This document shows positions 41,213 through 64,000 of a DNA stretch of 64,000 nucleotides, piece by piece; position 1 is the stretch's first letter; each line of letters begins with the position of its first letter. A model generated the notes under the pieces. It searched no databases and was not told where the DNA came from. It saw nothing but the letters and a program-made list of their open reading frames with translations. The DNA comes from Candidatus Babeliales bacterium. GTDB lineage: Bacteria > Babelota > Babeliae > Babelales > JBFXEV01. The translations under genes and the position numbers were made by a program. The stretch lies in assembly GCA_050179755.1 (NCBI GenBank), contig JBFXEV010000001.1, forward strand, positions 297,994 through 361,993, read 5' to 3'.

Positions 41213-42130
41213 TTAAACTTGATTTGCCAAGAGCACTTTGAGCAATTGAATAAGTTTATTGGTATTTTCATAGCTATTTCTCGCTATGTGTTTGGCGCGT
41301 GCAATGTAGTGTAAACAACTTAATTGCACATCTTTATTAAAAAAAGGATTGTCTAGAAACCCTGCCAGTGCAGTATATTCATCAAATTTATTACACAATA
41401 CATCGGGAGTATAGAGATTAACTAACTGCACTAATGCCGCTGTATAGCTTTTTAGTCCCTGTAGTTCAGCATCAGTAAATGCAACCGAGTCATCCAAGAA
41501 ATGCTGAACGTTCTGGAATGAAGAAGCACACAAATCTTGATTGAACGAAGATGCCATATCTATGCCATAAAAAATATCAGCCGCCTCATCATAAAAATAA
41601 TTGCTTCTACCACGGCCAGCATTACCTACGAAAGTATCTAAAGCAACAAGTGCTGGTAAATTTTTATGACGCGACATATGATATATTATCTCTCTTGTGA
41701 GACCAAGAACTTTTTCTTTTCCATTTTGACGAAGATTTAACCCTTTATATATCTTACCTTGATACAAATCAAAACGAACGCCTGGTACATATGTATGAAG
41801 TGTTGCAGGACTACCAAGATCTTTACCAATATATGTTATAGCCGCTGGAATAAGACTGGCCTGATTCAAGGAAACAGAAATAGAATGCCCTATATCAAGA
41901 GCTACCATCTCACAGACACAGCGTGCTAAGCGAGCAAAATCATCTGCAAATTTAATTTGTTTTATGAGAAACCAAACACCTGAAGTATCTTGAAAAATAG
42001 TAATTTCACAATAGGGATATTCAACATATTTGCAGGATTCTTTTATTGGCTTAATGTCTCTGTAATCAATACCTTGAACCCTACATGCACTTAGAAGCAG
42101 GAAAACATACATTAAAATAATCTGGCTCAT
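41213..42130 (-). CDS. Secreted HipA/PI3-PI4-kinase-like protein, probable pseudokinase
   Basis: FLIKQ (beta3 Lys), CEMVA (helix C Glu), LDTFVGNAGRGRSN, YGIDMA; signal peptide. Confidence 0.6.
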   Translation of the reverse strand: MSQIILMYVFLLLSACRVQGIDYRDIKPIKESCKYVEYPYCEITIFQDTSGVWFLIKQIKFADDFARLARCVCEMVALDIGHSISVSLNQASLIPAAITYIGKDLGSPATLHTYVPGVRFDLYQGKIYKGLNLRQNGKEKVLGLTREIIYHMSRHKNLPALVALDTFVGNAGRGRSNYFYDEAADIFYGIDMASSFNQDLCASSFQNVQHFLDDSVAFTDAELQGLKSYTAALVQLVNLYTPDVLCNKFDEYTALAGFLDNPFFNKDVQLSCLHYIARAKHIARNSYENTNKLIQLLKVLLANQV

Positions 42131-43083
42131 GATAAAAAGCCTTTTCTTGTCAACAAGCTCTTAAGAAGCCTATCAAGCTCAATTGCATGCTCATAATTTG
42201 CCAACATTATTTGGTTGCACCATGCAAAAAATTTAAAGCAATTTTTCATAGTTTCTTGATCAAAGAATGTTGTATCATAAAAGCCAGACAATCTAATATA
42301 CATTTCAAATTTATCCCATATTGCTCTAGGGGGATAAAGAGTAACCAATCTATGTAACGTTTCATAATATAACAATAATCCTTGAAACTCTTGTTCCGAA
42401 AAATCGACTTGTTCATTAAAAAAAAGAGTATACATATTTTCTGTAGAAAGCGCACATAATTTTCTGTTGAAGGCATCTGCCATATCAATACCTATAAAAG
42501 AATCAGTTGCTAGATCGTAAAAATAATTCCATCTACCCCGATCTCCATTCCCAACAAAAGTATCTAAGGCAACTAGAACAGGCAAATCATTATGGCGAGA
42601 CATGTGATAAATAATTTCTCTGGTTAATCCCGTTATCTTATTTTGAGCATTTCTTTGTCTAATATGTAATCCTTTATACTGCGTTCCTTGATATTTATCA
42701 AAACGAACACCTCGTGCATATGTGTGAAGTGTTGCAGGAAGATCAATAAGTTTACCTATAAATGGCACACCGGCAGGAATAAGCGCTGCATAATTGAGTG
42801 GTGCTTCAATAGAATGCCCTATATCAAGAGCTACCATCTCACAAACCAATTGCGCTGGATCAAATACATTACTATCCCTTAAAAGCTTTATTTGCTTTAC
42901 AACATACTTATTGCCAAATGGATCAATCAGAAATGTAATAGAAGAATGCAGACAATCCATATGACCATAAGATTCTATTTCTGTTACCAAATCTTGGTAA
43001 TTAATATTTTCACCGCCTCTTTGCGGAGTCAACATTAATGGTAAATAGAACGCAAGTCGCTTAGTAATATATAATCCAGACAC
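42127..43083 (-). CDS. HipA/PI3-PI4-kinase-like protein
   Basis: KYVVKQ, CEMVA, LDTFVGNGDRGRWN, IGIDMA; paralogue of the neighbouring gene. Confidence 0.65.
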   Translation of the reverse strand: MSGLYITKRLAFYLPLMLTPQRGGENINYQDLVTEIESYGHMDCLHSSITFLIDPFGNKYVVKQIKLLRDSNVFDPAQLVCEMVALDIGHSIEAPLNYAALIPAGVPFIGKLIDLPATLHTYARGVRFDKYQGTQYKGLHIRQRNAQNKITGLTREIIYHMSRHNDLPVLVALDTFVGNGDRGRWNYFYDLATDSFIGIDMADAFNRKLCALSTENMYTLFFNEQVDFSEQEFQGLLLYYETLHRLVTLYPPRAIWDKFEMYIRLSGFYDTTFFDQETMKNCFKFFAWCNQIMLANYEHAIELDRLLKSLLTRKGFLS

Positions 43084-43115
43084 AGATCGCGTTTTTCATT
43101 CTTAGTCATTCTTTT

Positions 43116-44060
43116 TTATTTTAGCGAGACTCTCAACTTTTTATGTCCTTTTTTCATTGGCTTCTTCCAAAGACCTGAAAAATGATGAATAGCCATAGTC
43201 TCTTGTTGCACCCACTTATATGGTCCATCATTCTTTTTACCCCATGCATAAAAGTAATTTTGTGGGAAAATTACATTAACGCCATCACAACTGGTTAACA
43301 ATTTTTTTACGGTATCACCAAAGTAAAAAACGCCGTTCCTATGAAATTGGTCTTTTTCATGAACATAGTCTTTCATAGTATCAATAAGCGCCTTCAGAAT
43401 GGGATGGCCCGGACGCGAGCCTATCAATGCATTACAACAGGTTAATTTATCACCTTTTTCATGGCCAGAAATCCATTTCAGTTCATGAATACCGGTATAG
43501 AAATCGCACCAATGATGCAACAAATCAAAAGGCTTAAGACATTCAAAATCTACATCAACATATAATCCACCAAATCGATATAAAATTTCATAACGCCAAA
43601 TATTTGCTTTCTCGCCATAATTAACTGCATTCTTAAAAGATTCCTTATTAATCAAATCAAATGCCTCGAGATCTGCTTCAGTCCAAACTTTAAAATCCCA
43701 ATCGGGGTGCAAATCAATCCATGTTTTTTGCAATTTTTTCAATTCTTCAGGCGGACGGCTACCCAACCAAATTTGATGAATCACTTTTGGAATAGTAACT
43801 GTTTCATTATATAGTATGGGCTTCTTATTTTTGGCTATACGAGCAACATGTTTGGTATAATTTTCCTTTAACATTTGCATATCAGCAGAAGTATATGAAT
43901 TATTATTCAGTAATTCAAAATAATAATCTTCAAATGTAGTAAACATTGCCTTATCAAAATCTTCCAAATAGTATAAATCTAAATTTATACAAGAAGTATT
44001 ACAAAAAACTATTAATAGTATGCTCGCACAATATAACTTTTTCATTATCAATACCTCCAC
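43116..44060 (-). CDS. GT32 (Och1/Gly_transf_sug) glycosyltransferase with signal peptide
   Basis: IPKVIHQIWLG, RYEILYRFGGLYVDVDFECLKP, AIHHFSGLW. Confidence 0.9.
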   Translation of the reverse strand: MEVLIMKKLYCASILLIVFCNTSCINLDLYYLEDFDKAMFTTFEDYYFELLNNNSYTSADMQMLKENYTKHVARIAKNKKPILYNETVTIPKVIHQIWLGSRPPEELKKLQKTWIDLHPDWDFKVWTEADLEAFDLINKESFKNAVNYGEKANIWRYEILYRFGGLYVDVDFECLKPFDLLHHWCDFYTGIHELKWISGHEKGDKLTCCNALIGSRPGHPILKALIDTMKDYVHEKDQFHRNGVFYFGDTVKKLLTSCDGVNVIFPQNYFYAWGKKNDGPYKWVQQETMAIHHFSGLWKKPMKKGHKKLRVSLK

Positions 44061-44065
44061 TAAAA

Positions 44066-44469
44066 CTATTTCTTGTTTATAAATTCATAGAGTATTTCTA
44101 TCAATCTCTCATTTTTTTTATTATTAAACAACTTAACAACTTTATCTCTGCCTTCATGTCCCATAACAATCCACAGCTCAGGATGCTCCACCATGTAACG
44201 CATTTTCTTACTTAATTGTGTTGTATCTTTTTCATTGACCAAAAAACCAGTAATGCCATCAACTACTAATGTCGGAATTCCCCTATGATGCGCGCTGATA
44301 ATGGGCAATGCTGTAGCCATTGCCTCCGTCATAGAAATAGAAAAATAACTCACAACTAATAAGATATTCAACGGTTATCGATGCTAGCTGAATATGTTTT
44401 TACTGAAATAAACAATGAACTCACCATACATAAATACAGTACAAACCAACTTGCAACTTTTTTTATCAT
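44066..44469 (-). pseudogene. GT4 (WcaL-like) pseudogene, frameshifted with a large internal deletion
   Basis: Signal-like MIKKVASWFVLYLCMVSSLF from ATG 44469 in one frame, then LNILLVVSYF fused directly to SMTEAMATALPIIS; paralogue 62164-63381 has ~260 residues between these motifs. Confidence 0.8.
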
Positions 44470-44707: not shown

Positions 44708-45577
44708 ATGAATATAAAATATATATATTTCATAACCATGCTGTCCTTGCTCCTTGGCAATCATGAAATGAAGTCAAAAATAGCCAGTGAGGTGCTCACA
44801 ACGTTGGCAAGTGTCATTAATGATGTCATTGAAAAAAATTTTACTGATGAAGAACAAGCTAAAATTAATAATATAACTAAATTGCGAAATGAATTAGAAA
44901 AAGATGAAACAGTAACAGGCTTATTTAGCATGTCTCACATGGTTCGTATTATTAGTATGCCTCACGATCCATGGGGCCTATTACTCGTAAAACTTGCACG
45001 TACGTTTCAGCCTAAAACATCGTTAGAGCTGGGTACTTGTCTTGGTATTTCATGTGCTTATTTGGCCGCCGGCCTAAATGAGGGACAACTTATAACAATG
45101 GAAAGTTTTCAACCATTAGTTCCTTTAGCAACAAGCAACTTTGAAGCTCTAAACATTAATAATATTTCTTTACTCTGTGGCGATGTACCCGATCTGCTCA
45201 AACAAGAATTGCCATTGTTGCCTTCTATAGACTTTGTTTTTGATGATCATTTACATGCTGAAAAGTATGTAATGGAATATCTAAATATTATTAAACCTTA
45301 CCTTTCAGATCAAGCTGTGTATTTATTTGATGATATTCATCGCAATGCAAGTATGGAATCGGCGTGGGAAAAGATTAAAAAAGATGAAGCAGTAAAAATC
45401 ACCATCACTCTTGCAAAAGGAATTTGCTATTGGGACTTCAAACACCCAGTGCCACGCGTTGGAATTTGTATTGTTGATAAAGATATAACTGAAAAAATCC
45501 ACTGTGATATTAACTTAGATGGTTGCAAAAGCGTAAAAGTGGAAAATAATCGTTTAATTGAACAAAGAGATACATAA
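44708..45577 (+). CDS. Class I SAM methyltransferase (Methyltransf_24-like) with signal peptide
   Basis: LELGTCLGIS, IDFVFDD.LH, LFDDIH...MESAW. Confidence 0.85.
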   Translation: MNIKYIYFITMLSLLLGNHEMKSKIASEVLTTLASVINDVIEKNFTDEEQAKINNITKLRNELEKDETVTGLFSMSHMVRIISMPHDPWGLLLVKLARTFQPKTSLELGTCLGISCAYLAAGLNEGQLITMESFQPLVPLATSNFEALNINNISLLCGDVPDLLKQELPLLPSIDFVFDDHLHAEKYVMEYLNIIKPYLSDQAVYLFDDIHRNASMESAWEKIKKDEAVKITITLAKGICYWDFKHPVPRVGICIVDKDITEKIHCDINLDGCKSVKVENNRLIEQRDT

Positions 45578-46019: not shown

Positions 46020-46946
46020 TCAGCGCCGCCGCCGTTTAAACCGTTTAGGAGGTTTTATCCAAAAAGCTGTATAGTAATGCACAGCCAACGTTTCGGGCTG
46101 CACATATGCCTTGCCGGGTTGAATAGTAAAGCCATAACTTGCAGCCATGGGCCCACTTGGATAAAAAAAATTTGAAGGGAAAATCATATCAAGCGAATCT
46201 GATTCAAGAGGCAAAATATCTTCGATTATCGATGTAAAAAAATCAGGACCAGTTCTATTAGCAACGCCTCTTTTATTAACAAAATGTTTCAACGAATTAA
46301 CAGCATGAGCAAGAATAGGATGCCCTGGACGAGCAGCAATTATGCCATTATTAATGCGCAATCTATTCTTAAATAATAACGGTACTGCATGTATACCAAC
46401 ATAAAAATCACATACTTGATTTAACCAATCGAGCGGTTTAAGACTTTCAAAATCAATGTCTACATACACTCCACCAAAATGATAGAGTATTTCATACCTT
46501 AAAATATCAGCTTTTTCACCCCAATTTACGGCTTTATCAAAATACTTTTTATTTTCAAACACAAAACCCTCAACATCATCATTAGTCCAAAGTTTATACT
46601 CCCAATCTGGATGCATAGTAAGCCAAGACTCCTGCCATGCGCGCGTTTTTTCTGGCAATGGGCGCGGACCTATCCATATTTGATGAATAATTTTAGGAAT
46701 AATATACTCATCAGTATATCGTTCGCGTGCCTTATCCAAAAATTGATAATATTGATCAACAATTTGATTAAGAAGTGCCTTATGTGGTGTTTTTTCAAGG
46801 AATTTATTATATGCTTTCAGATCATCTGGATGACTTATCATTGCTTGACTAAAACTTTCAGGAATATAAATCTCCTGAACTACAGCCACCACATAAAAAC
46901 TTGTAATCAATACAAGCAATATAGATATAAAATATATATTTTTCAT
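46020..46946 (-). CDS. GT32 glycosyltransferase with signal peptide and basic tail
   Basis: IPKIIHQIWIG, ADILRYEILYHFGGVYVDIDFE; start MKNIYF at 46946; ends KPPKRFKRRRR. Confidence 0.9.
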   Translation of the reverse strand: MKNIYFISILLVLITSFYVVAVVQEIYIPESFSQAMISHPDDLKAYNKFLEKTPHKALLNQIVDQYYQFLDKARERYTDEYIIPKIIHQIWIGPRPLPEKTRAWQESWLTMHPDWEYKLWTNDDVEGFVFENKKYFDKAVNWGEKADILRYEILYHFGGVYVDIDFESLKPLDWLNQVCDFYVGIHAVPLLFKNRLRINNGIIAARPGHPILAHAVNSLKHFVNKRGVANRTGPDFFTSIIEDILPLESDSLDMIFPSNFFYPSGPMAASYGFTIQPGKAYVQPETLAVHYYTAFWIKPPKRFKRRRR

Positions 46947-47962
46947 TATCTTACCTTTTGTTGAATTCTTGCCATCCATGCGCATGCTTTTTGACCAAAC
47001 GCACGCACTGGATCTAAATCTAAGGGAGTTCCAAAAGGAACGTTGCCCGTTGCAATGATATCAAGGCATTCTTTTGCAGAAGAAACACAGGTGCCAAAAC
47101 CATAGGTTTCTTGAAAAGAATTGAGCTTATAGTCACCCGGAATCATAATACAAGGAATTCCAAGTCCGTAGGCAATAATTGCGCCATGCAAACGGGAAGT
47201 AATAACTAACGAGCTTTTACAATAATATTCATTAATATAATCTTCTAATCCAAAATTTTTAGCCTGAATATTATTTATGACTTTAAGCTCTTTAATATGT
47301 TGCGATAACATGCTTATAATCTTCTCTGTTTGTTCTTTACCAAGCGAAACACTATGAGAATCATATAATATTAAACCTTCTGCATTCATGTTCCGCTTAA
47401 ATTTTTGTAAGTATATAACGGTTGGACAAAGGGAAATATCTGCATATGATAATTGATAATACTGTGCTGTTAGAAGATCACGAAGATTAACTAAATCGCA
47501 TTTTTTTGCAACAGCTTGCACAATTTCTTTGCTAACGCCTGCTGCAAATTCGCCATGCTTATATGGTAAACAAATACCCAATCCCCACATAATCATAGGA
47601 AGCGTACAATTATCACGTAACTTAATCCAAAAAGGCTCAAAGCAAGAATTCAATAAACCTGCTCCTCCAATAATAGCTCCTTTATAGTGCGTATTAATAA
47701 AATCAAAATCAATATCTTTATCATGCATACACCAAACATCAGTTGAAATGCCAAGCATTTCTTGTATGCCTAAAATCGGCAAAAAATTCCCTATGTTATC
47801 AGAAGAGGAATAAAATTGAATAATAGGAGACTGAGGTTTTCTGAGCTCTTTTTGTACTTTTGACAGATCATGAAATTTACAGCGTCGATCAATCGCACCA
47901 TATACACCATGCGCCACTAACCCAAAACATAGTAATACCCCATATTTTAAATAATTAACCAT
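46946..47962 (-). CDS. Polysaccharide pyruvyl transferase family protein with signal peptide
   Basis: NIGN, IIGGAGL, LRD..T, ITSRLHGAIIA..GIP. Confidence 0.8.
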   Translation of the reverse strand: MVNYLKYGVLLCFGLVAHGVYGAIDRRCKFHDLSKVQKELRKPQSPIIQFYSSSDNIGNFLPILGIQEMLGISTDVWCMHDKDIDFDFINTHYKGAIIGGAGLLNSCFEPFWIKLRDNCTLPMIMWGLGICLPYKHGEFAAGVSKEIVQAVAKKCDLVNLRDLLTAQYYQLSYADISLCPTVIYLQKFKRNMNAEGLILYDSHSVSLGKEQTEKIISMLSQHIKELKVINNIQAKNFGLEDYINEYYCKSSLVITSRLHGAIIAYGLGIPCIMIPGDYKLNSFQETYGFGTCVSSAKECLDIIATGNVPFGTPLDLDPVRAFGQKACAWMARIQQKVR

Positions 47963-48225: not shown

Positions 48226-49122
48226 ATGAAGCAAATTTTACACGCCAGCCCTATTCTTCTAGTTTTTATAACAATCTTATCTTTGCATGCAACAACAGAA
48301 CAAAAAGCTCTAATTGCTTTACAACCTAGTCAGGATCATATAGAAAACTACACTCGAATGCAAAAGTCTCCATTTTTCACCATATGTATTTATGCATACA
48401 ATACCGAAAATTGGATTAAAAAAAACTTAGATTCTGTTTTTAGTCAACATTATAAAAATTATCGTATACTCTACATTGATGACGCTTCTTATGACGCAAC
48501 TACAAATACAGTACAAAAATATATATCAACAACATCAGCACAACATATTAAAATAATTACAAATACAGAACATCAAGGCGAACTTAAAACACTCTATTCC
48601 ATTATTAATAATTGCGCTGATGATGAAATTATTATCTTGCTCAATGGTAATGATTGGCTTGCACATAACAAAGTATTAACTGAACTAGGTGCAGCATATA
48701 ATTCAAATGACATTTGGCTCACCTATGGCACATGCACCTCTGCACCTAAAGGCTGCAATATTAGTATTCGAAATGGATCAATACCTCAACACATATTGGA
48801 ACATCGTCTCTATAGAGACATATTCCCTTATATGCCAGTACGCAGCTTCTATGCATGGCTTTTTAAATTAATAAAAAAAGATGATCTGATTGACGCTTCA
48901 ACGGGAGATTTTTTTGAGCATGCAGCCGAATGTTATATTATGTGGCCACTGCTAGAGATGGCGCATAACCATTTTAAAGCAATTTCATCCACTACTTATG
49001 TAATAAACAGCCATGATCCTATCGCACAATTGGAAAAGGATTATCATTTACGCATGGCAATAAACAGCCAAATGGATAAAAATATTCCTATCTATCCTCT
49101 TGCAATAAAACCAAATTGCTAA
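48226..49122 (+). CDS. GT2 glycosyltransferase homologue (DxD degenerate) with signal peptide
   Basis: AYN..WI.KNLDSVFSQ.Y.NY, IDDAS.D, LNGNDWL in place of LDGDDW. Confidence 0.8.
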   Translation: MKQILHASPILLVFITILSLHATTEQKALIALQPSQDHIENYTRMQKSPFFTICIYAYNTENWIKKNLDSVFSQHYKNYRILYIDDASYDATTNTVQKYISTTSAQHIKIITNTEHQGELKTLYSIINNCADDEIIILLNGNDWLAHNKVLTELGAAYNSNDIWLTYGTCTSAPKGCNISIRNGSIPQHILEHRLYRDIFPYMPVRSFYAWLFKLIKKDDLIDASTGDFFEHAAECYIMWPLLEMAHNHFKAISSTTYVINSHDPIAQLEKDYHLRMAINSQMDKNIPIYPLAIKPNC

Positions 49123-49135: not shown

Positions 49136-50137
49136 ATGAAAAGAACAAATCTATATATACTCATTATCTTATTGAGCTCCTATTATACACAGGCCAAAAT
49201 ATTAATCTTTACATTTGCTTATAACAGACCTGATTTTATTGAAATTCAATACCAAACATTTAGCAAATTTTTAAGCGAAGAGTTTGAATTAATTGTATTT
49301 AATGATGCTACTGAACAAACTGCCAAAAAAGGTATCGAACAGATATGCACCGCCTTAAATCTTATATGCGTTACGATTCCTCAAAAAATACATGCGCGGC
49401 CCTATCTTAATCGACCGGACAAAAGCAAGCCACATGCAGCAATAAGAAACTGCAATGTAGTGCAATATGCCATGGATATTATAGGGTTTGATCACAATGA
49501 TATTCTTATGCTAGTTGATTCTGATTTATTCTTAATACGAGAATTTGATATAAGAAATTTTATACAAAACCACCACGCAGCAGCATTTATGCGGCCTTGC
49601 TCAGATGTGCCTGAAAAATACCATAATTGCACTACGTTACACCCTCATGTTTCCGGCATTTCATATTTTTGGATAGGACTTGTTATTCTCAATATGAATT
49701 CGTTACCTCATAAATATGCATTAAATTTTAATAGAGGCACTGTACAAACAGTTTTTGGCCCCTCATTTGTGGATGCTGGCGGATATAGTTACTATAGCAA
49801 AACATGTATACCAAATTTTAAAGCAAAACCTATTATTCGCACCTGTTTTCAAGATATCATCTGTACATCGTGTAAAGAAAAAAATAGTGCTATCTGTACG
49901 CATTCTACGGCTACTTTACAACACCTTGGCGTGCCAAATGATTTAATTAAACTATTACAACAGATACCGCTTGATCCACGTAAAGAACAAGCCGATCGTG
50001 GCATAGAACTTTTTAACGCAGGTACCTTTTTACATTATAGATCAGGGTCGAACTGGAACAAGGCATCTCGTGCTTTTATTGCCAATAAAGATAAGGCGTT
50101 TAATAACTTGATTAAGACTATCTTGGAGCAAGAATGA
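49136..50137 (+). CDS. GT-A-fold putative glycosyltransferase with signal peptide
   Basis: AYNRPDFI, IVFND, LVDSDLF (DxD), D.GG, FLHYRSGSNW. Confidence 0.6.
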   Translation: MKRTNLYILIILLSSYYTQAKILIFTFAYNRPDFIEIQYQTFSKFLSEEFELIVFNDATEQTAKKGIEQICTALNLICVTIPQKIHARPYLNRPDKSKPHAAIRNCNVVQYAMDIIGFDHNDILMLVDSDLFLIREFDIRNFIQNHHAAAFMRPCSDVPEKYHNCTTLHPHVSGISYFWIGLVILNMNSLPHKYALNFNRGTVQTVFGPSFVDAGGYSYYSKTCIPNFKAKPIIRTCFQDIICTSCKEKNSAICTHSTATLQHLGVPNDLIKLLQQIPLDPRKEQADRGIELFNAGTFLHYRSGSNWNKASRAFIANKDKAFNNLIKTILEQE

Positions 50138-55072: not shown

Positions 55073-56038
55073 ATGTACAAAATAATCAAGGAGGTAATGA
55101 TGATCAACATTAGTTCTATTTCATTTAACTTACTTTTGCTCACTTGCAGTATTTTAATAAATTTACCAATAACCACGAAAACATTTTTAGTCTTTGGTGG
55201 CAAACAGGGATGGATTGGCGGGCAAATGATTAATATTCTTCAAGACCAAGGCCATGTAGCAATTGCTGCAGAGTCACGCCTTGAAAACCGCATTTCAGTT
55301 GAAAATGAAATAGTGCGCTTAAATCCCGATTGTATTATAAATGCTGCAGGAGTCACGGGTAGACCCAATGTTGATTGGTGTGAAAACAATAAGCAAGCAA
55401 CTATTAAAGCAAACCTTGTAGGAGCCTTAACCTTATTTGACATCGCTCATACTCATAACATACATGTAATTAATTTTGGCACTGGTTGCATTTATGAATA
55501 TAATGATACACACCCCATGTACAGCGGCATTGGCTTTACTGAAGAAGATAAGCCTAACTTCCAAGGGTCTTTTTATTCATTCACCAAAACCATGCTAGAT
55601 CAATTAGTACCATATTATCCTAATGTTCTCAATTTACGCTTGCGTATGCCTATTTCCGACGATCTACACAGCCGAAGCTTTATTACTAAAATCACTAAAT
55701 ATCAAAAAGTAGTAAATATCCCTAATTCTATGAGCGTGCTTCATGATCTATTACCATTAGTTCCTGTAATGGCTGAGCGTATGTTAACGGGGAACTATAA
55801 CTTTGTAAACCCCGGGGTAATTAGCCATAATGAAATTTTAGAATTATATAAAGAATATATTGATCCAGATTTTTGTTATATAAACTTCACCGTGGAAGAA
55901 CAAGCAAAAGTTATTAAAGCTGGTAGATCAAACAACGAATTAGATACCAGTAAGCTTCTTGCTGAATTTCCTTATATAAAACCGATTAAAGAGGCAATAA
56001 TTGGTGTATTTGAACGTATGCAAAAAAATCTTCCCTAA
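55073..56038 (+). CDS. NDP-4-keto-6-deoxyglucose 3,5-epimerase/4-reductase (plant NRS/ER, UER1-type; rhamnose synthesis) with N-terminal signal; start probably 55097/55100
   Basis: GWIGG, NAAGVTGRPNVDWCE, TGCIYEY, GIGFTEED.PNF.GSFYS.TK, LRLRMPIS, NPGVISHNEIL, RSNNELD: the recalled plant NRS/ER motif series. Confidence 0.9.
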   Translation: MYKIIKEVMMINISSISFNLLLLTCSILINLPITTKTFLVFGGKQGWIGGQMINILQDQGHVAIAAESRLENRISVENEIVRLNPDCIINAAGVTGRPNVDWCENNKQATIKANLVGALTLFDIAHTHNIHVINFGTGCIYEYNDTHPMYSGIGFTEEDKPNFQGSFYSFTKTMLDQLVPYYPNVLNLRLRMPISDDLHSRSFITKITKYQKVVNIPNSMSVLHDLLPLVPVMAERMLTGNYNFVNPGVISHNEILELYKEYIDPDFCYINFTVEEQAKVIKAGRSNNELDTSKLLAEFPYIKPIKEAIIGVFERMQKNLP

Positions 56039-56630: not shown

Positions 56631-58022
56631 ATGAAGCATCAACTTATTTTTCTATTACTATTCGCTTCTTTAAAAACATATGCGGATTTTGAACCACAAA
56701 ATATTGCAGTAATTGGTACTGGGTATGTTGGGCTTATTACCGGAGCAGGCCTTGCCGATTTTAATCATCACGTTGTTTGTGCCGATATTGATCAAGAAAA
56801 AATTAAATTGCTCATGAATGGCGTTATTCCGATTTTTGAGCCGGGAGTGGATGAACTTGTTGCAAAAAATGTGGCACTAGGATCTCTCAATTTTACTTCA
56901 GACGTGGGCAGCGCTGTAGAAAAAGCGGATATTATTATTATTGCCGTGGGCACTCCAATGGGTGATAATGGACATGCTGACTTAACGGCATTAAAAGCGG
57001 TAGTAAAAACAATAGCTGACCATTTGAATGGTTACAAAATTATTGTAACTAAAAGTACCGTGCCAATAGGGACCTATAGACTCGTTTATTCAATGATTGA
57101 AAAAGCAAAACCTGATGCACAGTTTTCTGTGATTTCTAATCCAGAATTTTTGCGAGAAGGCTCTGCAATTCGTGATTTTTTTCAATGTAATCCGATAGTA
57201 CTTGGTGGGTATGATCAGAATGCACTTAATAAGATGAAGAATATATATCAACCTTTAATTAATAAAGGTACCAATCTAATTATGACTGATCCATCGAGCT
57301 CAGAAACTATAAAATATGCATGGAATGCATTTTCTGCAACACGTATTATGTATGTCAATGAGTTGGCTCATGTATGTAATGCTGTAGGTGCCAATATATT
57401 TGAAGTGGTAAAAGGTTTAAGTTTTAGTGAAGATTTACTGCCAACAAGTATGTTGCGTCCTGGCCCCGGCCTTGGCGGTTCATGCTTGCCTAAAGATACT
57501 AATGCGCTTGTTGCCATGGCGCAGCTTTATGGCGTTGATCTTAAAATTGTTACTGCAGTCATTGCAGCAAATGAGCGGCACAAAAACTTAATAGTAGAAC
57601 AATTATATCCTTTTTTCCACCGCAAAATGGCTGGTCGAACAGTAGCTATTTTAGGCTTATCATTTAAAGCAAATACAGATGACATCCGTTATTCTGCAGC
57701 AATAACTGCAATAGAGCGATTAACAGCTGACGATGTATTTATAAAAGCATATGATCCGCAAGCAATGGAAAATATGAAGAGGTTGTATCCTAATATTATG
57801 TACTGCCAATCGCTGGAAGAGGCGGTAGCTCAAGCAGATGCAATTCTGCTTCTTACAGAATGGGATGAATTTAAAAATGCAGACTTGGTCAAAATAAAAG
57901 AACTTATGACCAAGCAGACAATGTATCACAAGCCAGTAGTTGTTGATCCGCGGAATCTATGGAATCCAAGTGAACTTAAAGCACTTGGATTTGATTATGC
58001 AAATTTGGGCCGTGTAAAGTAA
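56631..58022 (+). CDS. ugd: UDP-glucose 6-dehydrogenase with N-terminal signal peptide
   Basis: IAVIGTGYVG, AVGTP, KSTVP, NPEFLREG, GGSCLPKD (catalytic Cys), LGLSFKANTDDIR. Confidence 0.93.
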   Translation: MKHQLIFLLLFASLKTYADFEPQNIAVIGTGYVGLITGAGLADFNHHVVCADIDQEKIKLLMNGVIPIFEPGVDELVAKNVALGSLNFTSDVGSAVEKADIIIIAVGTPMGDNGHADLTALKAVVKTIADHLNGYKIIVTKSTVPIGTYRLVYSMIEKAKPDAQFSVISNPEFLREGSAIRDFFQCNPIVLGGYDQNALNKMKNIYQPLINKGTNLIMTDPSSSETIKYAWNAFSATRIMYVNELAHVCNAVGANIFEVVKGLSFSEDLLPTSMLRPGPGLGGSCLPKDTNALVAMAQLYGVDLKIVTAVIAANERHKNLIVEQLYPFFHRKMAGRTVAILGLSFKANTDDIRYSAAITAIERLTADDVFIKAYDPQAMENMKRLYPNIMYCQSLEEAVAQADAILLLTEWDEFKNADLVKIKELMTKQTMYHKPVVVDPRNLWNPSELKALGFDYANLGRVK

Positions 58023-58144: not shown

Positions 58145-59149
58145 ATGAAAAAAGGAATAATACGTATTTGCACTATCCTAGCTGCCTTACTTTTTTTTAT
58201 CTTACCTCAAGACTTTCAAGCTAAAGCATCATTATTGGAAAGAATCAAGAAAACGCACAATCAAAGATCTAAATATATTAACAAAAAAGATCAAAAGAGA
58301 AAGAAAAATACGCTTAAAAAAATAAAAAAAAGAGAAGCGGTTATAGTCCCGGATGAGGTAAGTACCTATTCAGAACTACCTTTAGCTGTTGTTATCTGCT
58401 CCTACAATAACGAAGAATGGGCAATACAAAATCTTGACTCTGTACTTACACAAAATTATTCCAATTACCACATTTACTATATCGATGATGGCTCTGTGGA
58501 CGCTACGCCCACAATAGTTAAGGAATACATTGAAGCACATAACCTAAAAAATAAAATAACATTTCTTCGTAACGACACTAATTACTTTAAGCTCTACAAC
58601 ATGTATCATCTAATCCAGACGTTACCCGATCAAGTCATTGTAGTAGAATTAGATGGTGATGATTGGTTCGCATCTCCTGGAGCGTTAAGCTACATAAATA
58701 ATCTGTATCACAATCGCAATATTTGGTTGACTTATGGAAGAAATCAAGAATGGCCTAGTGGTAATATTGGTTGGCATGAAGAATATCCTGAAGACGTAAT
58801 TAAAAATAAAAAGTTTAGAGAATATACCTATCATGCATCACAACCCAGATCATTTTATGCATGGTTGTTTAAACAAATTAAACAACAAGACCTATTCTAT
58901 AAGGGAAATTTTTATCCTGTTGCAACAGATGTGGCCTATATGTTGCCTATGTTTGAAATGGCTGGCCAGCGAAGCGCATATATCGGTGATATACTCTATA
59001 TACGAAATAGAGCTAATGTAATTAATACTGAAAAAAGATGGTCAATGGATGAAATTAAAGCTTTTAAGAAAGACATTCGCGCCAAACATAAATATCCTAC
59101 TCTGAACGCTCCAGTATTAAATGAAGGAGAAATAACGTATGAGAAATAA
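58145..59149 (+). CDS. GT2 glycosyltransferase with signal and highly basic linker
   Basis: SYNNE, IDDGS.D, LDGDDW, SFYAWLFK, TDVA. Confidence 0.88.
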   Translation: MKKGIIRICTILAALLFFILPQDFQAKASLLERIKKTHNQRSKYINKKDQKRKKNTLKKIKKREAVIVPDEVSTYSELPLAVVICSYNNEEWAIQNLDSVLTQNYSNYHIYYIDDGSVDATPTIVKEYIEAHNLKNKITFLRNDTNYFKLYNMYHLIQTLPDQVIVVELDGDDWFASPGALSYINNLYHNRNIWLTYGRNQEWPSGNIGWHEEYPEDVIKNKKFREYTYHASQPRSFYAWLFKQIKQQDLFYKGNFYPVATDVAYMLPMFEMAGQRSAYIGDILYIRNRANVINTEKRWSMDEIKAFKKDIRAKHKYPTLNAPVLNEGEITYEK

Positions 59150-60326
59150 TAAAATATTATTATCTGCTTTCTTACTCCTTCAATTGGGCGACTCTTGCCT
59201 TGCTGTAGCAAAAGAATCCCTCTGTATCTTATTTTTAGTTGATCAATTTCCCAGCCTACCTGAAACCTTTGTATTAAATCAAATTACTGGATTGATAGAT
59301 CGTGGGCATAATGTATATATCCTTGCTCGCTTACCTGAAAATGGCGAAATTGTCCATGCAGATTTCAAAAAATATAAGCTTGAAATGCATACCCACTATC
59401 AATCAAAAAGCTATGAGGACGGAATGCCTCCTTCTTTACAAAACATAGACCCCGATATATTATTTTGCCATTTTGGTTTACAAGGAAACTATGGATTACA
59501 ACTAAAGAAAAAATATTTTTCAAGAGCAAAGCTCATTACCGTTTTTCATGGATATGATATGAGTAGATTGCTTAACGAAAAGCCCGACCTCTATAAAGAG
59601 TTACTGCCTGCCTTAGATTTGGCGCTGCCTATTAGCCAAGCTTGGAGAAAAAAATTAATAAAAATGGGAAGCAATAAAAATAAAACAATAGTACATCACA
59701 TGGGCATTGAATGTAGTCAGTTCACTTTCCAACCACGCCAACTTCATAAGAATGAAACTATTGAATTTATTTCTATAGCGCGCCTTGTTGAAAAAAAAGG
59801 TATTCAGTATGCCTTGCAGGCCTTTGCACAAACAAAACAAGAACATTCAAATATACACTATACTATTATTGGAGACGGCCCATTGCGCAATGAACTGTTA
59901 AAAGAGGCAAAAGAATTAGGTATTAGTAACAACGTCTCCTTTCGTGGTTGGCAGGAAAGTCAACAAGTTGCCATTGCATTGAACAAAGCACATATAATGA
60001 TCGCACCAAGCGTGACAAGCGTAAAAGGTGACATGGAAGGTATTCCTGTTTCCTTAATGGAAGCAATGGCCACTGGACTACCAGTTTTAAGCACTAACCA
60101 CAGTGGTATTCCAGAACTCATTGATCATGGTATCTCCGGTTATTTAAGTCCAGAAAAAGATGTGCAACAGCTAGCTGCCAATATGCAATTTATGATACAA
60201 AACCCCGGACTATGGCCCACTATCGGCTTGGCAGGACGCCAAAAGGTAGAGAATGAGTTTAATATTATAACACTAAATGATCAATTAGAACAAATGTTAT
60301 TCAAACTAATAGAGGATAAAATATGA
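59139..60326 (+). CDS. GT4 glycosyltransferase (WcaL-like) with signal peptide
   Basis: FP.LPETFVLNQITGL, FHGYD, ARLVEKKG, GDMEGIPVSLMEAMA. Confidence 0.92.
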   Translation: MRNNKILLSAFLLLQLGDSCLAVAKESLCILFLVDQFPSLPETFVLNQITGLIDRGHNVYILARLPENGEIVHADFKKYKLEMHTHYQSKSYEDGMPPSLQNIDPDILFCHFGLQGNYGLQLKKKYFSRAKLITVFHGYDMSRLLNEKPDLYKELLPALDLALPISQAWRKKLIKMGSNKNKTIVHHMGIECSQFTFQPRQLHKNETIEFISIARLVEKKGIQYALQAFAQTKQEHSNIHYTIIGDGPLRNELLKEAKELGISNNVSFRGWQESQQVAIALNKAHIMIAPSVTSVKGDMEGIPVSLMEAMATGLPVLSTNHSGIPELIDHGISGYLSPEKDVQQLAANMQFMIQNPGLWPTIGLAGRQKVENEFNIITLNDQLEQMLFKLIEDKI

Positions 60327-61174
60327 ATATTCGTGTTATAGCTATTATTAGCTGCCTATTGCCAATCTGGATGACCGCTCAAACACATACGGAAGATACC
60401 TTACAAAAAATTGCTAATGTCATCAATAGTATAAAAAAGCAGGAATTCACAGCTAATGAGCAAGAAACAATGGATAAGCTTACTGAGTGGCGTACAAAAT
60501 TGAGCAAAGATGAAACAATCATAGGCAATTACAGCATTTCACATATGGCACGAATCATCAGCATTCCTCACAAGCCATGGGGGCAAATTTTATTGAAGCT
60601 CACCAACGAGTTTCAATCTAAAATGATGCTAGAAATTGGTACCTGCATTGGAATGTCTGCTGCATATCTTGCAGCCGGAGCTCCTCAGGGTAAAATGCTT
60701 ACTTATGAAAATTTTGCGCCTATTGTTCCATTAGCTGAAGATACACTCTCATATGCAGGGGTTTCAAACGTTGAAATTTTGCTTGGTGATGTGGCAACAC
60801 TACTTAAAAATACAGTTTCAAAGGTTGACCCAATTGATTTTGTATTTGATGATCATATACATACAGAAAGGCCTGTACTTGAATATTTTAATATTATTTC
60901 ACCTTACTTAGCAGACCAAGCAGTTTATTTATTTGATGATATTATGCGCAATCCGAGCATGGAATCAGCATGGAATAAAATAAAGAATGATCCACGAGTA
61001 TCTATTGGGGTGACTCTGACACAAGGTATTTGCTATCATGATTTTGATCATGCAGTGCCTCGTCTAGGTATTTGCATTATTGATAATAAAATAAAAGAAA
61101 AATACTATATAGACATTAATCTAGATCGCTGTAATAATGTAAGCGTACAAAACAATCAATTAATACTAAATTGA
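60323..61174 (+). CDS. Class I SAM methyltransferase with signal peptide (paralogue of 44708)
   Basis: LEIGTCIGMS, IDFVFDDHIH, LFDDI..N.SMESAW. Confidence 0.85.
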   Translation: MNIRVIAIISCLLPIWMTAQTHTEDTLQKIANVINSIKKQEFTANEQETMDKLTEWRTKLSKDETIIGNYSISHMARIISIPHKPWGQILLKLTNEFQSKMMLEIGTCIGMSAAYLAAGAPQGKMLTYENFAPIVPLAEDTLSYAGVSNVEILLGDVATLLKNTVSKVDPIDFVFDDHIHTERPVLEYFNIISPYLADQAVYLFDDIMRNPSMESAWNKIKNDPRVSIGVTLTQGICYHDFDHAVPRLGICIIDNKIKEKYYIDINLDRCNNVSVQNNQLILN

Positions 61175-61207
61175 ACAAAATTTATTTAAGCACAACAATC
61201 AAAATAC

Positions 61208-61248
61208 TTTAAAATGGGAGTGAATGTATAATTCCTCCCATTTTAAAA
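61208..61248. terminator. Bidirectional hairpin terminator
   Basis: tttaaaatgggag...ctcccattttaaa. Confidence 0.65.
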
Positions 61249-61258
61249 TTTATACTTG

Positions 61259-62143
61259 TTACTTCCATAAAGCTGAAAAATGATGGATTGCCATTGTTTC
61301 TTTTTGCACCCATTTATACGGACCATCAGCCTTTTTACCCCAAGCATAGAAATAATTTTGTGGGAAAATTACATTAATGCCTTCACAATTTGCAAGCATT
61401 CTTTTTATTGTATTACCAAAATAAAATACACCGTTTCTATGAAATTGTTTTTTTTCATGAATAAAATTGTGCATGTCCTCAATAAGTGCCTTCAAAATTG
61501 GATGACCTTTACTAGAACCTATCAAGGCATTACAACAAGTTAATTTATCACCTTTCTCACAATCACGTAACCAGTTAAGCTCATGAATACCAGTGTAGAA
61601 ATCACACCAATGATGTAATAAATCAAATGGCTTAAGACACTCAAAGTCTACGTCAACGTACAATCCACCAAACCGATAGAGAATTTCATAACGCCAAATA
61701 TTTGCTTTTTCACCATAATTGGCTGCATTCTTAAATGATTCCTTGTTAAAGATATCAAAGGCTTCAAGATCCTCGTCAGTCCATAATTTAAATTCCCAAT
61801 CAGGATGCAATTCAATCCATGTCATTTGCAATTTTTTTAACTTTTCAGGCAAAGGGCTCCCTAACCAAATTTGATGAATTATTTTGGGAATTGTAACTTC
61901 TTTGCAACACTTAAATGGCTTTTTATCTTTACTAATGCGATTTACTTGTTGAGTATAAATATGTTTCAATAACTGCATATCATCAGAAGTATATGGATTA
62001 TTATTTAATAAATCATAATAATAATCTTCAAATACCGTAAACATAGCCTGATCAAAATCTTCTAAATAATATAAGTCAAAATTAAAACCATTAACCTCAC
62101 CGCTTAAAATAAACAGCAAGCTTAAAAAAAATTGTTTATTCAT
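61259..62143 (-). CDS. GT32 glycosyltransferase with signal peptide (paralogue of 43116)
   Basis: IPKIIHQIWLG, RYEILYRFGGLYVDVDFECLKP. Confidence 0.9.
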   Translation of the reverse strand: MNKQFFLSLLFILSGEVNGFNFDLYYLEDFDQAMFTVFEDYYYDLLNNNPYTSDDMQLLKHIYTQQVNRISKDKKPFKCCKEVTIPKIIHQIWLGSPLPEKLKKLQMTWIELHPDWEFKLWTDEDLEAFDIFNKESFKNAANYGEKANIWRYEILYRFGGLYVDVDFECLKPFDLLHHWCDFYTGIHELNWLRDCEKGDKLTCCNALIGSSKGHPILKALIEDMHNFIHEKKQFHRNGVFYFGNTIKRMLANCEGINVIFPQNYFYAWGKKADGPYKWVQKETMAIHHFSALWK

Positions 62144-62163
62144 AGCTGCTCCCTTCCTGTGCC

Positions 62164-63381
62164 CTATTTATTTAAAAATTCATAAAATATTTTTACTAAA
62201 TTCTTTGCTTGTTTTTTAGAATTAAAATTTTCAACTATTTGCTTTCGACCAGCTTTGCCCATCTTTGGCCATAATTCTGGATGTAAGATCAGATATTTGA
62301 TCTTTTCTGCAAGTGCAATTACATTTTTTTCTTCTACTAAAAGCCCGGTAATGCCATCTTGCACTAATTCAGGAATACCACTATGGTATGTACTAATTAT
62401 TGGCATGCCAACCGCCATTGCTTCCATCATAGATACTGGAATGCCCTCTTTATCACCATCAGAGCTTGTTACTGAAGGGGCAAGCAAAATGTGGCTGGAT
62501 TGCATCAATTCCCTTACTTCTGCTTGCGTTTTACTACCAAGTAAATGAATTTTGTCTGAAACCTCTAATTTTAAAATTAGCTCTTTCATTAGTGCCATAA
62601 GTGGCCCATCTCCAATAATGTTATATTCAATATTAGTATATTTTTGCGCTATACTTGCAAATGCTTTTATTGCATATTCAATTCCCTTCTTTTCAATAAA
62701 ACGAGCACAGGTTAAAAATTGTATCGTCTCCCCTTCTTTATAATGGCGCTCTTTAAAATCAAATGCTTGGCAGTCAACCCCTAAATAATGCACTCTAATT
62801 TGGTGCGCATCATAACCAAGTCCGACTAATTTTTCTCTCCAATGATTACAAATAGGTAGCGCTAAATCTAGGTAATTAAACAGATTATCATACAGGTGAA
62901 TATCGTTGTCTAAATTACAACTCATATCAACACCATGGAATATAGTAAACAGCGGGGCATTTATGGCGTATTTTTGCTTCAATTCATAGCCTAAATAGCC
63001 GCGATGCCCAAAATGACAGAGTATTATATCAAACGAATACTTTGAAAAAAAATCTTGCTTTTTACTTTTAGAATCATCATGATAGATAACGCGCTCTGCA
63101 AGTTTAAAGTCAACAAATGCATCATGCACTAAATCATCTTCCTTTTTAACTGCATATATACGTACATCATGACCTAATTCAAGTAAATCAATCACTTGAT
63201 TTAATATAAAAGTCTCAGATAATTTAGGAAAATAACTAACTACCATCAAAATTCGTAATGATTGATTGGTCGTTGATGGGGCTGTGATACATCGTGAGTA
63301 GACGCATAAAACCCAAAGCACGCAGCATAAAATTCTTGCAAAATATAGTATAGGCATAACTCTCCGCAGTCGTATACTCAA
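62164..63381 (-). CDS. GT4 glycosyltransferase (WcaL-like) with signal peptide
   Basis: FPKLSETFILNQ, FHGVD, ARFIEKKG, DKEGIPVSMMEAMA. Confidence 0.92.
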   Translation of the reverse strand: MSIRLRRVMPILYFARILCCVLWVLCVYSRCITAPSTTNQSLRILMVVSYFPKLSETFILNQVIDLLELGHDVRIYAVKKEDDLVHDAFVDFKLAERVIYHDDSKSKKQDFFSKYSFDIILCHFGHRGYLGYELKQKYAINAPLFTIFHGVDMSCNLDNDIHLYDNLFNYLDLALPICNHWREKLVGLGYDAHQIRVHYLGVDCQAFDFKERHYKEGETIQFLTCARFIEKKGIEYAIKAFASIAQKYTNIEYNIIGDGPLMALMKELILKLEVSDKIHLLGSKTQAEVRELMQSSHILLAPSVTSSDGDKEGIPVSMMEAMAVGMPIISTYHSGIPELVQDGITGLLVEEKNVIALAEKIKYLILHPELWPKMGKAGRKQIVENFNSKKQAKNLVKIFYEFLNK

Positions 63382-63505
63382 TTATTTCTCATATTCAGAA
63401 TATAATAGAACAAGTTCAAATAACAATGAATTAAAAAAATTATAGAAGTATTCTTTATTTATAACCCCCAGTAATCAACCTTTGTTACGGAAATTTATAT
63501 TATCC

Positions 63506-64000
63506 TTATGTCTTATTTTTTGTAATAAGTGCATATTCAAAAAAATTAATCAATTGCGCATTTTGCTTTTCAAGATTAAATTCTTCTTCTATTCGTGCTC
63601 TGCCTGCCTTGCCCATAACACGCCATAGCTCAGGATGCTCTATCAAATACTCCATCTTTTCACTGAGTGCATTTACATCTTTTTCTGGTACTAAAAAGCC
63701 GGTAATCTTATCTTGCACAAGCTCAGGTATACCACTATGATAGGTGCTAATTACTGGCAAGCCCCTTGCCATTGCTTCCATTATTGAAACTGGTATTCCT
63801 TCTTCATTACCATTTCTAGAAGTAATTGAAGGAGCTAAAAAAATATGCCCTTTACTTGCTAACTCATGTAATTCTTCTTGTGTTTTATTTCCAAGAAAAT
63901 GAATGTTTTGCGTAATATTAAGGGATTTCGCAAGTGCCTCGATACTTGCTTTACAGGGCCCGTCTCCAATTAATATATACTCAATATTGGGATATTTTTT
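63506..64000 (-). CDS. GT4 glycosyltransferase, C-terminal part (gene starts beyond the window)
   Basis: Frame open to the window end: IGDGP...APSITSRNGNEEGIPVSIMEAMARGLPVIST. Confidence 0.9.
   Translation of the reverse strand, partial: KKYPNIEYILIGDGPCKASIEALAKSLNITQNIHFLGNKTQEELHELASKGHIFLAPSITSRNGNEEGIPVSIMEAMARGLPVISTYHSGIPELVQDKITGFLVPEKDVNALSEKMEYLIEHPELWRVMGKAGRARIEEEFNLEKQNAQLINFFEYALITKNKT

Follow-up and report, generated by a model that had tools for sequence, protein, structure and literature searches.

To our knowledge, every bacterial glycan pathway described so far consumes its nucleotide sugars at the cytoplasmic face of the membrane, and a product that is lipid-linked or polymeric is afterward flipped or exported. 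In the eukaryotic Golgi, type II membrane enzymes of the glycosyltransferase (GT) families GT32 and GT47 are served by a supply of nucleotide sugars to the lumen. Secreted GT toxins and effectors, such as the clostridial GT44 enzymes, Legionella Lgt and SetA, or NleB, work as lone enzymes, each directed at one host protein, and carry their own delivery domains or type III or type IV secretion signals. The glycogen system of Chlamydia reportedly relies on type III secretion signals and consists of few enzymes making one homopolymer. It is the closest precedent for the locus described here: the glycogen enzymes of C. trachomatis are reported to be secreted into the inclusion lumen and use host uridine diphosphate (UDP)-glucose (Gehre et al. 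2016, PMC4829429). We analyzed a stretch of 64,000 nt, referred to as the window, from a Candidatus Babeliales bacterium, an energy parasite of protists. From position 41213 onward the window carries a glycan island, a cluster of glycosyltransferases together with donor-making and decorating enzymes, of which nearly all begin with a leader resembling a signal peptide. On balance, we favor the reading that these leaders take the enzymes out of the cytoplasm, where they would assemble a glycan at the expense of the host.

The genome is a single contig of 1,525,295 bp with 39.1% G+C, and the window covers positions 297994-361993. The island overruns the window end, with 19 further open reading frames (ORFs) beyond the GT4 gene that is cut there, and spans window positions 41213 to ~91078 (genome ~389071), i.e., ~50 kb with 40 ORFs, 39 of which are intact genes. 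Its G+C content of 35.4% is below that of all 296 sliding 50-kb windows of the genome. The far border is formed by MurJ, an ABC ATPase, a TnpB-like gene, and Lon; the TnpB/Cas12f-like gene (OrfB_IS605 and TNB domain) is located at genome ~391864-392979 on the minus strand (L002:10865-11980), just past the MurJ end of the island. The transferases comprise seven GT32 domains (one fused to GT2), nine GT2, one GT47, three GT4 plus one GT4 fragment, and two GT-A-like proteins. Two UDP-glucose 6-dehydrogenases (Ugd) and one NRS/ER-type enzyme would make donors, and one pyruvyl transferase, two methyltransferases, and one GNAT would decorate. The remainder is composed of five kinase-like proteins, four members of a 450-aa family, and two further unknowns. 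The cofactors of the tagged enzymes are UDP-sugars, NAD(P), S-adenosylmethionine (SAM), phosphoenolpyruvate (PEP), acetyl-CoA, or ATP.

An ORF was assigned to the leader class if its first 35 residues include the start of an uncharged run whose 8-residue core is strongly hydrophobic. A first hydropathy heuristic had flagged 51% of all ORFs and was replaced by this stricter rule. The class includes 35 of the 40 island ORFs, compared to 520 of 1330 elsewhere (39%; odds ratio 10.9, Fisher p 5.8e-10), an enrichment that exceeds chance. Three more leaders were hidden by the label 'multiTM' (Ugd at 56631, ORFs 76037 and 81160), and in ORF 71881-73563 the leader follows the internal Met54, where the overlap with the upstream gene ends. 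The leader call on the GT4 fragment is spurious, since this ORF is a gene fragment. In total, 38 of the 39 intact island genes carry a leader, and only 42127-43083 is doubtful. Inside the window, the basic-hydrophobic N-terminal leader is found on 19 of 20 intact genes. An earlier note on this DNA, made from the letters of the window, had claimed that nearly every enzyme is tagged, and this holds for the window as well as for the whole island; the three leaders that it quoted are present as written.

The controls gave the expected outcome. As the same note had suggested, we compared housekeeping genes of the window, and all ten (FtsZ, FtsA, SpoU, dNK, TyrS, a class I aminoacyl-tRNA synthetase, YbeY, ComM, ACPS, and S1) are leaderless. 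Among 82 annotated genes in two regions of Escherichia coli K-12, including the rfb/wca loci, nine were flagged (11%). Four of these are truly exported or anchored (Wza, AsmA, YaaX, YaaI); the other five are false positives (Gnd, WbbK, WcaE, Wzb, FixC), in which the hydrophobic first strand begins at residue 1-8. Ugd, WcaL, WcaK, RfbD, GalF, Gmd, and Fcl of E. coli were not flagged. Five evident false positives were also seen in the genome under study, namely TIM, PadR, glyoxalase, photolyase, and PolA among 136 flagged proteins of at least 120 aa in another 385 kb. A leader load as such is not special to the island. For the relative Chromulinavorax destructans, a Phobius signal peptide was reported on 44% of the coding sequences and on 78% of the ankyrin proteins (Deeg et al. 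2019, PMC6561590). Thus, a high background was already known, and our 39% of leader-class ORFs outside the island stands beside it, although derived from a heuristic rather than from Phobius.

Several signals indicate that the leaders are translated. Of the 40 start codons that open a leader, 10 are preceded by a strong Shine-Dalgarno sequence (AGGAGG, AGGAG, GGAG, or GAGG) and 10 more by a weaker one. Eleven start codons lie inside the final bases of the gene upstream, with a 4-nt overlap in seven cases. The Ugd gene at 56631 has AGGAGG ahead of its ATG and contains no in-frame ATG, GTG, or TTG between residues 1 and 60, and residue 60 already lies past the Rossmann motif. Furthermore, independent public gene calls include the leaders on ~200 Ugd and NRS/ER homologues. 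For window 55000-60400, no RNA data set containing the sequence was listed, and three DNA runs of one study may represent the source sample. The alternative named in the earlier note, untranslated leaders with true starts downstream, is therefore largely refuted, given the ribosome binding sites and overlaps at the leader ATG and the Ugd start.

For each of Ugd, NRS/ER, and the WcaL-like GT4, the best 120 homologues were listed. In the case of Ugd, the heuristic recognizes a leader on the extension of 94 homologues and misses the extension of nine, while 16 show the canonical 438-aa form without extension and one lacks the motif. NRS/ER reveals a similar distribution, with 101 extended homologues bearing a heuristic leader, 14 extended homologues missed by the heuristic (five of them long or fragmentary forms), four without extension, and one without the motif. 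Those leader-bearing homologues of both enzymes that are named belong to TM6, Dependentiae, or Babeliales. The WcaL-like GT4 shows a different picture: 104 of its best 120 homologues, with cyanobacteria and Chloroflexota among the names, begin at the conserved N-terminus, six have an extension with leader, five an extension without leader, and five lack the motif; by eye, a leader is seen on eight, including the query and its paralogue. The alignment of homologues proposed in the earlier note is consequently in favor of its view that the leaders are additions specific to this lineage.

Within the clade the leaders persist. GT32 was found in 28 of 81 sampled Babeliales genomes, and of 35 GT32 ORFs in the loci that were fetched, the heuristic assigns a leader to 27, while four more show a visible one. 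A sister species (G001) has a syntenic island, where 23 of 31 ORFs with an island homologue carry a heuristic leader; the other eight are two full-length proteins with a visible leader missed by the heuristic and six fragments. In 13 orthologue pairs between the two species, identity amounts to 30% over 297 leader columns and to 58% over 5517 columns of the mature parts. The leaders drift in sequence but retain their character, which is the behavior expected of signal peptides. Judged from these comparisons, the leaders are lineage-specific additions kept by selection across the clade.

With regard to topology, the n-region has a net charge of at least +1 in 35 of the 38 island leaders, and all 38 have a hydrophobic core. 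The flank on the N-terminal side of the core is more positive than that on the C-terminal side in 30 of 38, less positive in four, and equal in four, so that the positive-inside rule puts the catalytic domain outside (N-in/C-out). The extensions are short, with a median of 22 aa in NRS/ER (interquartile range 19-24, n=111) and 26 aa in Ugd. In NRS/ER homologues an Ala directly precedes the conserved Lys-Thr-Phe-Leu strand, the first beta-strand, in 36 of 110 cases, and an AXA-like site lies at most 3 residues from this position in 87 of 110, although the AXA rule taken alone is permissive. For this reason the AXA rule was dropped as stand-alone evidence of cleavage, and so was the length of the h-region, which does not discriminate. 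A lipobox-like motif was flagged in only four island leaders. The Tat pathway was rejected as well: paired arginines were read by eye in one leader only (62164), and Tat genes were not searched for. Taken together, the leaders look Sec-type, and most of them are probably cleaved. Some proteins may retain uncleaved anchors, and by charge most of them would still face outward.

The island genes inside the window, with their Pfam matches and E-values, are as follows.

41213..42130, minus strand: kinase-like protein with leader, one of five island paralogues; no Pfam match.
42127..43083, minus strand: kinase-like paralogue, 48% identical to 41213; sole intact island gene without a clear leader.
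43116..44060, minus strand: GT32 with leader; Gly_transf_sug 4.7e-15; 75% identical to 61259-62143.
44066..44371, minus strand: C-terminal GT4 fragment, a decayed copy; covers only positions 105-169 of the Glycos_transf_1 profile.
44708..45577, plus strand: SAM methyltransferase with leader; Methyltransf_24 2e-10; 52% identical to 60323-61174.
46020..46985, minus strand: GT32 with an anchor-like hydrophobic segment of 20 aa (residues 17-36); Gly_transf_sug 1e-14.
46946..47962, minus strand: polysaccharide pyruvyl transferase with leader; PS_pyruv_trans 2.2e-18; GAGG ahead of the ATG.
48226..49122, plus strand: GT2 with leader; Glycos_transf_2 8.8e-15, domain from residue 52.
49136..50137, plus strand: GT-A-like protein with leader; no Pfam or NCBIfam match.
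50134..51147, plus strand: paralogue of 49136 (39% identical) with leader; GGAG and an ATGA overlap (4 nt) at the start.
51193..52302, minus strand: GT32 with leader; Gly_transf_sug 8.3e-15.
52446..53342, minus strand: GT47 (exostosin-type) with leader; Exostosin_GT47 2.6e-19.
53531..54961, plus strand: long GT2 with leader; Glycos_transf_2 1.2e-17 from residue 28.
55073..56038, plus strand: NRS/ER-type UDP-rhamnose synthase (3,5-epimerase/4-reductase) with a 36-aa extension; Epimerase/RmlD; PDB 4qqr, 7jid.
56631..58022, plus strand: Ugd with a 22-aa leader; three Ugd domains from residue 24.
58145..59149, plus strand: GT2 with leader followed by a Lys/Arg-rich linker; Glycos_transf_2 1.4e-16 from residue 82.
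59139..60326, plus strand: WcaL-like GT4 with leader; Glycos_transf_1 2.1e-38; AGGAG ahead of the ATG.
60323..61174, plus strand: SAM methyltransferase with leader; Methyltransf_24 4.3e-10; ATGA overlap with the upstream gene.
61259..62143, minus strand: GT32 with leader; Gly_transf_sug 6.8e-14; GGAG ahead of the ATG.
62164..63381, minus strand: GT4 with leader; Glycos_transf_1 1.2e-38.
63506..64000, minus strand: GT4 with leader, truncated at the window end (the complete gene runs to 64690); Glycos_transf_1 1.9e-31.

Most family assignments of the earlier note agree with Pfam (four GT32, three GT2, GT4, GT47, the pyruvyltransferase, two Methyltransf_24 proteins, and Ugd), and its NRS/ER call is backed by the PDB entries 4qqr (3e-101 over query residues 37-317) and 7jid (1e-64). 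The N-terminal GxxGxxG motif of NRS/ER comes after the leader. The WcaL-like GT4 at 59139-60326 reaches 7.8e-75 against TIGR04005 wcaL, below the cut-off of that model, and together with the WcaK-like pyruvyl transferase it recalls, by analogy, colanic-acid chemistry. The island GT32 proteins show weak Pfam matches to TcdA_TcdB (best E in the window 7.5e-8), have 290-370 aa, and contain no delivery domains. For the proteins that the same note had labeled 'GT-A' (two) and 'kinase-like', the genes exist, while the labels can serve as leads only, since the GT-A-like pair (49136, 50134) and the kinase-like pair (41213, 42127) have no Pfam match even at E<=1. At this threshold, Pfam gave nothing useful for ten unassigned island proteins and the C-terminal halves of two GT2, and no family was found for the C-terminal half of 53531-54961. 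The label 'kinase-like' is suggested by HipA_2 matches of paralogues beyond the window, which are weak and below cut-off, and by the position of the 41213 protein in the Atlas near HipA_2 and PI3_PI4-kinase clusters. The doubtful N-terminus of 42127-43083 is weakly hydrophobic. An AlphaFold2 model of the GT-A-like pair alignment had a mean pLDDT of 37.3, too low for use.

The four genes of the 450-aa family are located at L001:12531-18982 on the plus strand, and all four carry leaders. The family has 1457 representatives at E<=0.001, many without the leader part. An alignment of 45 members shows a PP-loop-like SGGLDS consensus and a Cys cluster, QueC matches two of the 45 at E 0.004, and fusions exist to RXYLT1_C (two) and PIG-L (one). 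In the Atlas the family is located near clusters named DUF6395/QueC. A function assigned through such neighbors is a lead only. The AlphaFold2 model of the family alignment was too poor for a fold search (mean pLDDT 39.9), and profile searches with this family and with the GT-A-like pair against PDB sequences gave nothing below E 0.08.

Eight paralogue families take in 36 of the 40 island genes, with the closest pairs 45-75% identical, and an inverted segmental duplication relates 43116-45577 (GT32, GT4 remnant, methyltransferase) to its mirror image 60323-63381. One GT4 copy of this duplication has decayed to the 101-aa fragment at 44066-44371, which matches the C-terminus of 62164-63381 at 54% identity. 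Island genes have rapidly duplicated, diverged, and decayed both here and in the sister species, a pattern consistent with a surface that the host can recognize.

The genome encodes the machinery that such leaders presuppose: SecY (5.3e-103), two signal peptidase I genes (Peptidase_S26), and, of a type II secretion system (T2SS), component C, two secretins, F, and two E ATPases. T2SS F is found at window 26341-31274 on the minus strand, ~10 kb upstream of the island. Its neighbors there are an MlaD-domain protein and four ORFs whose hydrophobic N-termini resemble those of prepilins and which were read as pseudopilins by eye only. A T2SS with two gspD copies across TM6, and the lack of most lipopolysaccharide genes in Babeliales, are reported by Yeoh et al. 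(PMC4776705). Three genes for TLC-type nucleotide transporters are present; in an energy parasite they imply that host nucleotides must already arrive in the periplasm. A Legionella-type porin is located at genome 541703-542773.

Similar leaders are present on host-type proteins with ankyrin, WD40, LRR, RING, UCH, and Skp1-POZ domains, and those with ankyrin, WD40, LRR, RING, or UCH domains make sense only in a host cell. Five tandem paralogues of 545-607 aa with near-identical leaders are located at genome ~403832-412712 (window ~105839-114719, L003); the two scanned members are WD40 beta-propeller proteins. Tagged as well are enzymes that are usually cytoplasmic: a glutamine synthetase, a class I GATase, three GNATs, two NUDIX proteins, Ham1-MazG, HIT, CYTH, a thioredoxin reductase-thioredoxin fusion, a short-chain dehydrogenase/reductase (SDR), and a GalU paralogue. 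The glutamine synthetase (genome ~419850-421307, plus strand, L004:5451-6908) has an N-terminal extension of ~60 aa with a signal-peptide-like segment. Of two GalU-like UTP-glucose-1-phosphate uridylyltransferases, both on the minus strand at genome 703600-704616 (L019:1201-2217) and 1119903-1120820 (L055:404-1321), one is extended by a leader of 28 aa, whereas its counterpart is leaderless. An FtsH-like protein (AAA ATPase and M41) at window 2091-3686 on the minus strand shows a signal-peptide-like N-terminus and no other predicted span, and hence this ATP-dependent protease looks exported. Two adjacent nitroreductase paralogues on the minus strand (window 21873-22577 and 22656-23228) differ in their N-termini, one having a lipoprotein-like leader ending in Cys and the other no leader; they look like a two-compartment pair.

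Among glycan enzymes the tag is selective. Genome-wide, nine of nine GT32 and 11 of 13 GT2 matches are tagged, whereas three GT4 outside the island, a Dpm1-like GT2, and a TviC/GalE-like SDR are leaderless, so that the tag discriminates within the glycan metabolism of one genome. A second glycan island has tagged GT2 and GT32 genes.

Export parts are scarce around these enzymes. The Wzx, Wzy, Wza/Wzc, ABC-2, and phosphoglycosyltransferase families have no member among the window ORFs, and the Pfam scan bears out the earlier statement that the window lacks such components of capsule export. None of the 40 island ORFs encodes a flippase, ABC-2, polymerase, or Wza/Wzc part, and none has three or more predicted membrane spans. 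A conventional export module just beyond the window, which the earlier note had named as the finding that would speak against it, does not appear in the extension of the island to ~91078, and MurJ flanks the island. In the whole genome, the search for exporters that had been proposed gave a mixed result: a WecA-like gene, a marginal Wzx-like gene, and three ABC-2 permeases elsewhere in the genome were found, and Bac_transf, Wzy_C, PMT_2, and Poly_export had no match.

We consider it more likely than not that the catalytic domains are Sec-exported and that they build and decorate an acidic, methylated, and pyruvylated glycan outside the cytoplasm, using nucleotide sugars and cofactors of the host. 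Sec-type signal peptides would carry the island enzymes across the inner membrane, outside the cytoplasm they would produce UDP-glucuronate and UDP-rhamnose, and the transferases would assemble an acidic heteroglycan of glucuronate and rhamnose that bears methyl, pyruvyl, and acetyl groups, and possibly also phosphate or amide. The host would supply nucleotide sugars, NAD(P), SAM, PEP, acetyl-CoA, and ATP. The lack of a flippase, polymerase, or exporter in the cluster would follow from this, because assembly outside the cytoplasm would need none. What the data show are the enzyme families, the leaders with their translation, lineage-specific addition, and conservation across the clade, and the genes for Sec, signal peptidase I, and the T2SS. 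The export itself, the cleavage, the compartment (periplasm, surface, or beyond via the T2SS), the acceptor, and the host as source of the cofactors are inferred.

A number of observations weigh against this reading. Export and cleavage of the island enzymes are themselves predicted. The median length of the h-region is 11 in island leaders and 12 in first helices of polytopic proteins, a metric that does not tell the two apart, and at least two island leaders (46020, 68016) have the length of an anchor. The earlier note had the whole pathway exported. Here the export of the catalytic domains stands as the best reading, while the inclusion of the whole pathway does not, since GalE, Gmd, Fcl, ManC, and one GalU, encoded elsewhere in the genome, are leaderless donor enzymes. 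A GT32 lies 17 nt downstream of leaderless gmd and fcl, the genes that serve GDP-fucose synthesis (genome 577012-580093, minus strand, L012:9013-12094), and this GT32 outside the island (577012-577980) has an 18-aa hydrophobic N-terminal segment; a 493-aa polytopic protein adjoins the locus. The arrangement, together with the leaderless donor enzymes, suggests that some donors are made in the cytoplasm and are used by at least some of the tagged transferases, which speaks against a purely host-fed model. A UDP-glucose 4,6-dehydratase as partner of NRS/ER was not found genome-wide with PF01370, whose six matches are Gmd, Fcl, GalE, the TviC/GalE-like SDR, NRS/ER, and one other SDR. Besides MraY there is one WecA-like gene, ~127 kb past the island end, and the Wzx-like gene, at the family cut-off, adjoins a tagged GT2 in the second island; with both genes, a lipid-linked start followed by flipping is possible, and the flipped primer could be elaborated outside. 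Finally, passage of NAD(P) and acetyl-CoA across the outer membrane has to be assumed.

The same leaders could also serve other ends. If the enzymes were host-directed effectors that leave by the T2SS or in vesicles after Sec, they would act on host molecules or build a matrix in the host cytosol or vacuole. This we regard as unlikely, even though proteins that must reach the host (those with ankyrin, WD40, LRR, RING, or UCH domains) bear like leaders, the T2SS looks complete, every cofactor exists in the host cytosol, the GT32 proteins weakly match the TcdA/TcdB glucosyltransferase domain, and Chlamydia is reported to secrete glycogen enzymes that use host UDP-glucose (PMC4829429). More than 20 transferases, decoration, and two kinds of donor-making enzymes look like equipment for making a structural heteroglycan. 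The glycosylating effectors known so far each work alone on a host protein, and a T2SS substrate signal is not readable from sequence. The periplasm or the cell surface fits the data at least as well as a destination in the host.

A still lower probability is given to uncleaved N-out/C-in anchors that would hold cytoplasmic enzymes near a lipid-linked acceptor started and flipped by the WecA-like and Wzx-like proteins. Both genes exist, a tagged GT32 shares its orientation with the leaderless genes gmd and fcl, some hydrophobic segments have 18-20 aa, and the h-region metric is compatible with anchors. The charge distribution of the flanks nevertheless predicts N-in, and the short NRS/ER extension with its conserved small residue before the first strand leaves no room for a 20-aa span plus linker. 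Moreover, no reason is known why soluble enzymes such as Ugd and NRS/ER should be tethered, and evident secreted proteins bear like leaders. That the leaders are an artefact of downstream starts, or functionless relics of eukaryotic Golgi anchors acquired by gene transfer, is very improbable and largely refuted. GT32, GT47, and NRS/ER are common in eukaryotes, and leaders on GlmU and ManC elsewhere in the genome may indeed be mis-called starts, each having an internal Met at the usual position. Against this stand the Shine-Dalgarno sites and start-stop overlaps at the leader ATG, the missing alternative start of Ugd, and the public gene calls. Furthermore, the bacterial-type WcaL-like GT4 and TuaD-like Ugd are tagged while their nearest relatives outside are not, and plant NRS/ER (4qqr) aligns from query residue 37 onward only.

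If the export reading is true, a whole Leloir pathway outside the cytoplasm would be a new mode of bacterial glycan assembly and would entail a new dependence on the host, whose activated sugars and cofactors would be taken without import. It could help explain the signal tags on nearly half of a Dependentiae proteome. It could also explain why many transferases occur in Babeliales despite the reported lack of most lipopolysaccharide genes (PMC4776705). Going further, and only tentatively, Dependentiae might run a bacterial counterpart of the Golgi, with a full Leloir line in the periplasm or at the surface that is fed by the host through the outer membrane, needs no lipid-carrier flipping, and forms part of a broader strategy that places ~40% of the proteome outside the inner membrane. 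Such a line may reach from the interconversion of donors through more than 20 transferases to decoration with methyl, pyruvyl, acetyl, and phosphate groups, and the exported set may include ATP-dependent enzymes, e.g., the glutamine synthetase and the FtsH-like protease.

Among open-access papers and preprints, we found no report of tagged glycosylation or nucleotide-sugar enzymes in Dependentiae/Babeliales, nor of periplasmic Leloir enzymes. The main text of PMC6561590 does not contain the word stem 'glycosyl' and does not describe tagged nucleotide-sugar or Leloir enzymes. The same source lists three phylum members cultured with protist hosts, C. destructans and two earlier amoeba-infecting isolates (PMC6561590). 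With cultured members and hundreds of tagged Ugd and NRS/ER sequences at hand, the question of export is directly testable.

Apart from the island, the window contains a Gp49-like (HigB-type) gene with a 102-aa partner at 10539-11182 on the plus strand, a probable toxin-antitoxin pair.

Compared to known systems, the island is closest in enzyme content to the rfb/wca loci of E. coli K-12, with which it shares Ugd, a WcaL-like GT4, a WcaK-like pyruvyl transferase, GT2, an acetyltransferase, and a rhamnose reductase. In E. coli, however, these enzymes are leaderless, and the locus contains WcaJ, WzxC, WcaD, Wza, Wzb, and Wzc, none of which is found in the island. It likewise differs from a conventional Wzx/Wzy or ABC locus in that no initiating transferase lies nearby, export parts are absent, and the transferases are tagged. 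The secreted GT toxins are DXD-type GT-A enzymes that work outside their producer on host UDP-sugars, and the island GT32 proteins weakly match TcdA_TcdB; in contrast to these toxins, the island would constitute a multi-enzyme assembly line with Sec leaders. As in Chlamydia, an obligate intracellular bacterium would carry out polysaccharide synthesis from sugar nucleotides outside its own cytoplasm, but with Sec-type leaders, ~40 genes, donor-modifying enzymes (Ugd, NRS/ER), and decorating enzymes. With the Golgi the island shares GT32 and GT47 as well as Leloir transferases with N-terminal hydrophobic targeting segments, which are predicted to be non-cytosolic here, and methyl and other decoration is proposed to take place in the same compartment as transfer. 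Unlike the stem-plus-anchor arrangement of Golgi enzymes, most island leaders resemble short cleavable signal peptides of bacteria, and Ugd and NRS/ER, which are cytosolic in eukaryotes, are tagged in the island.

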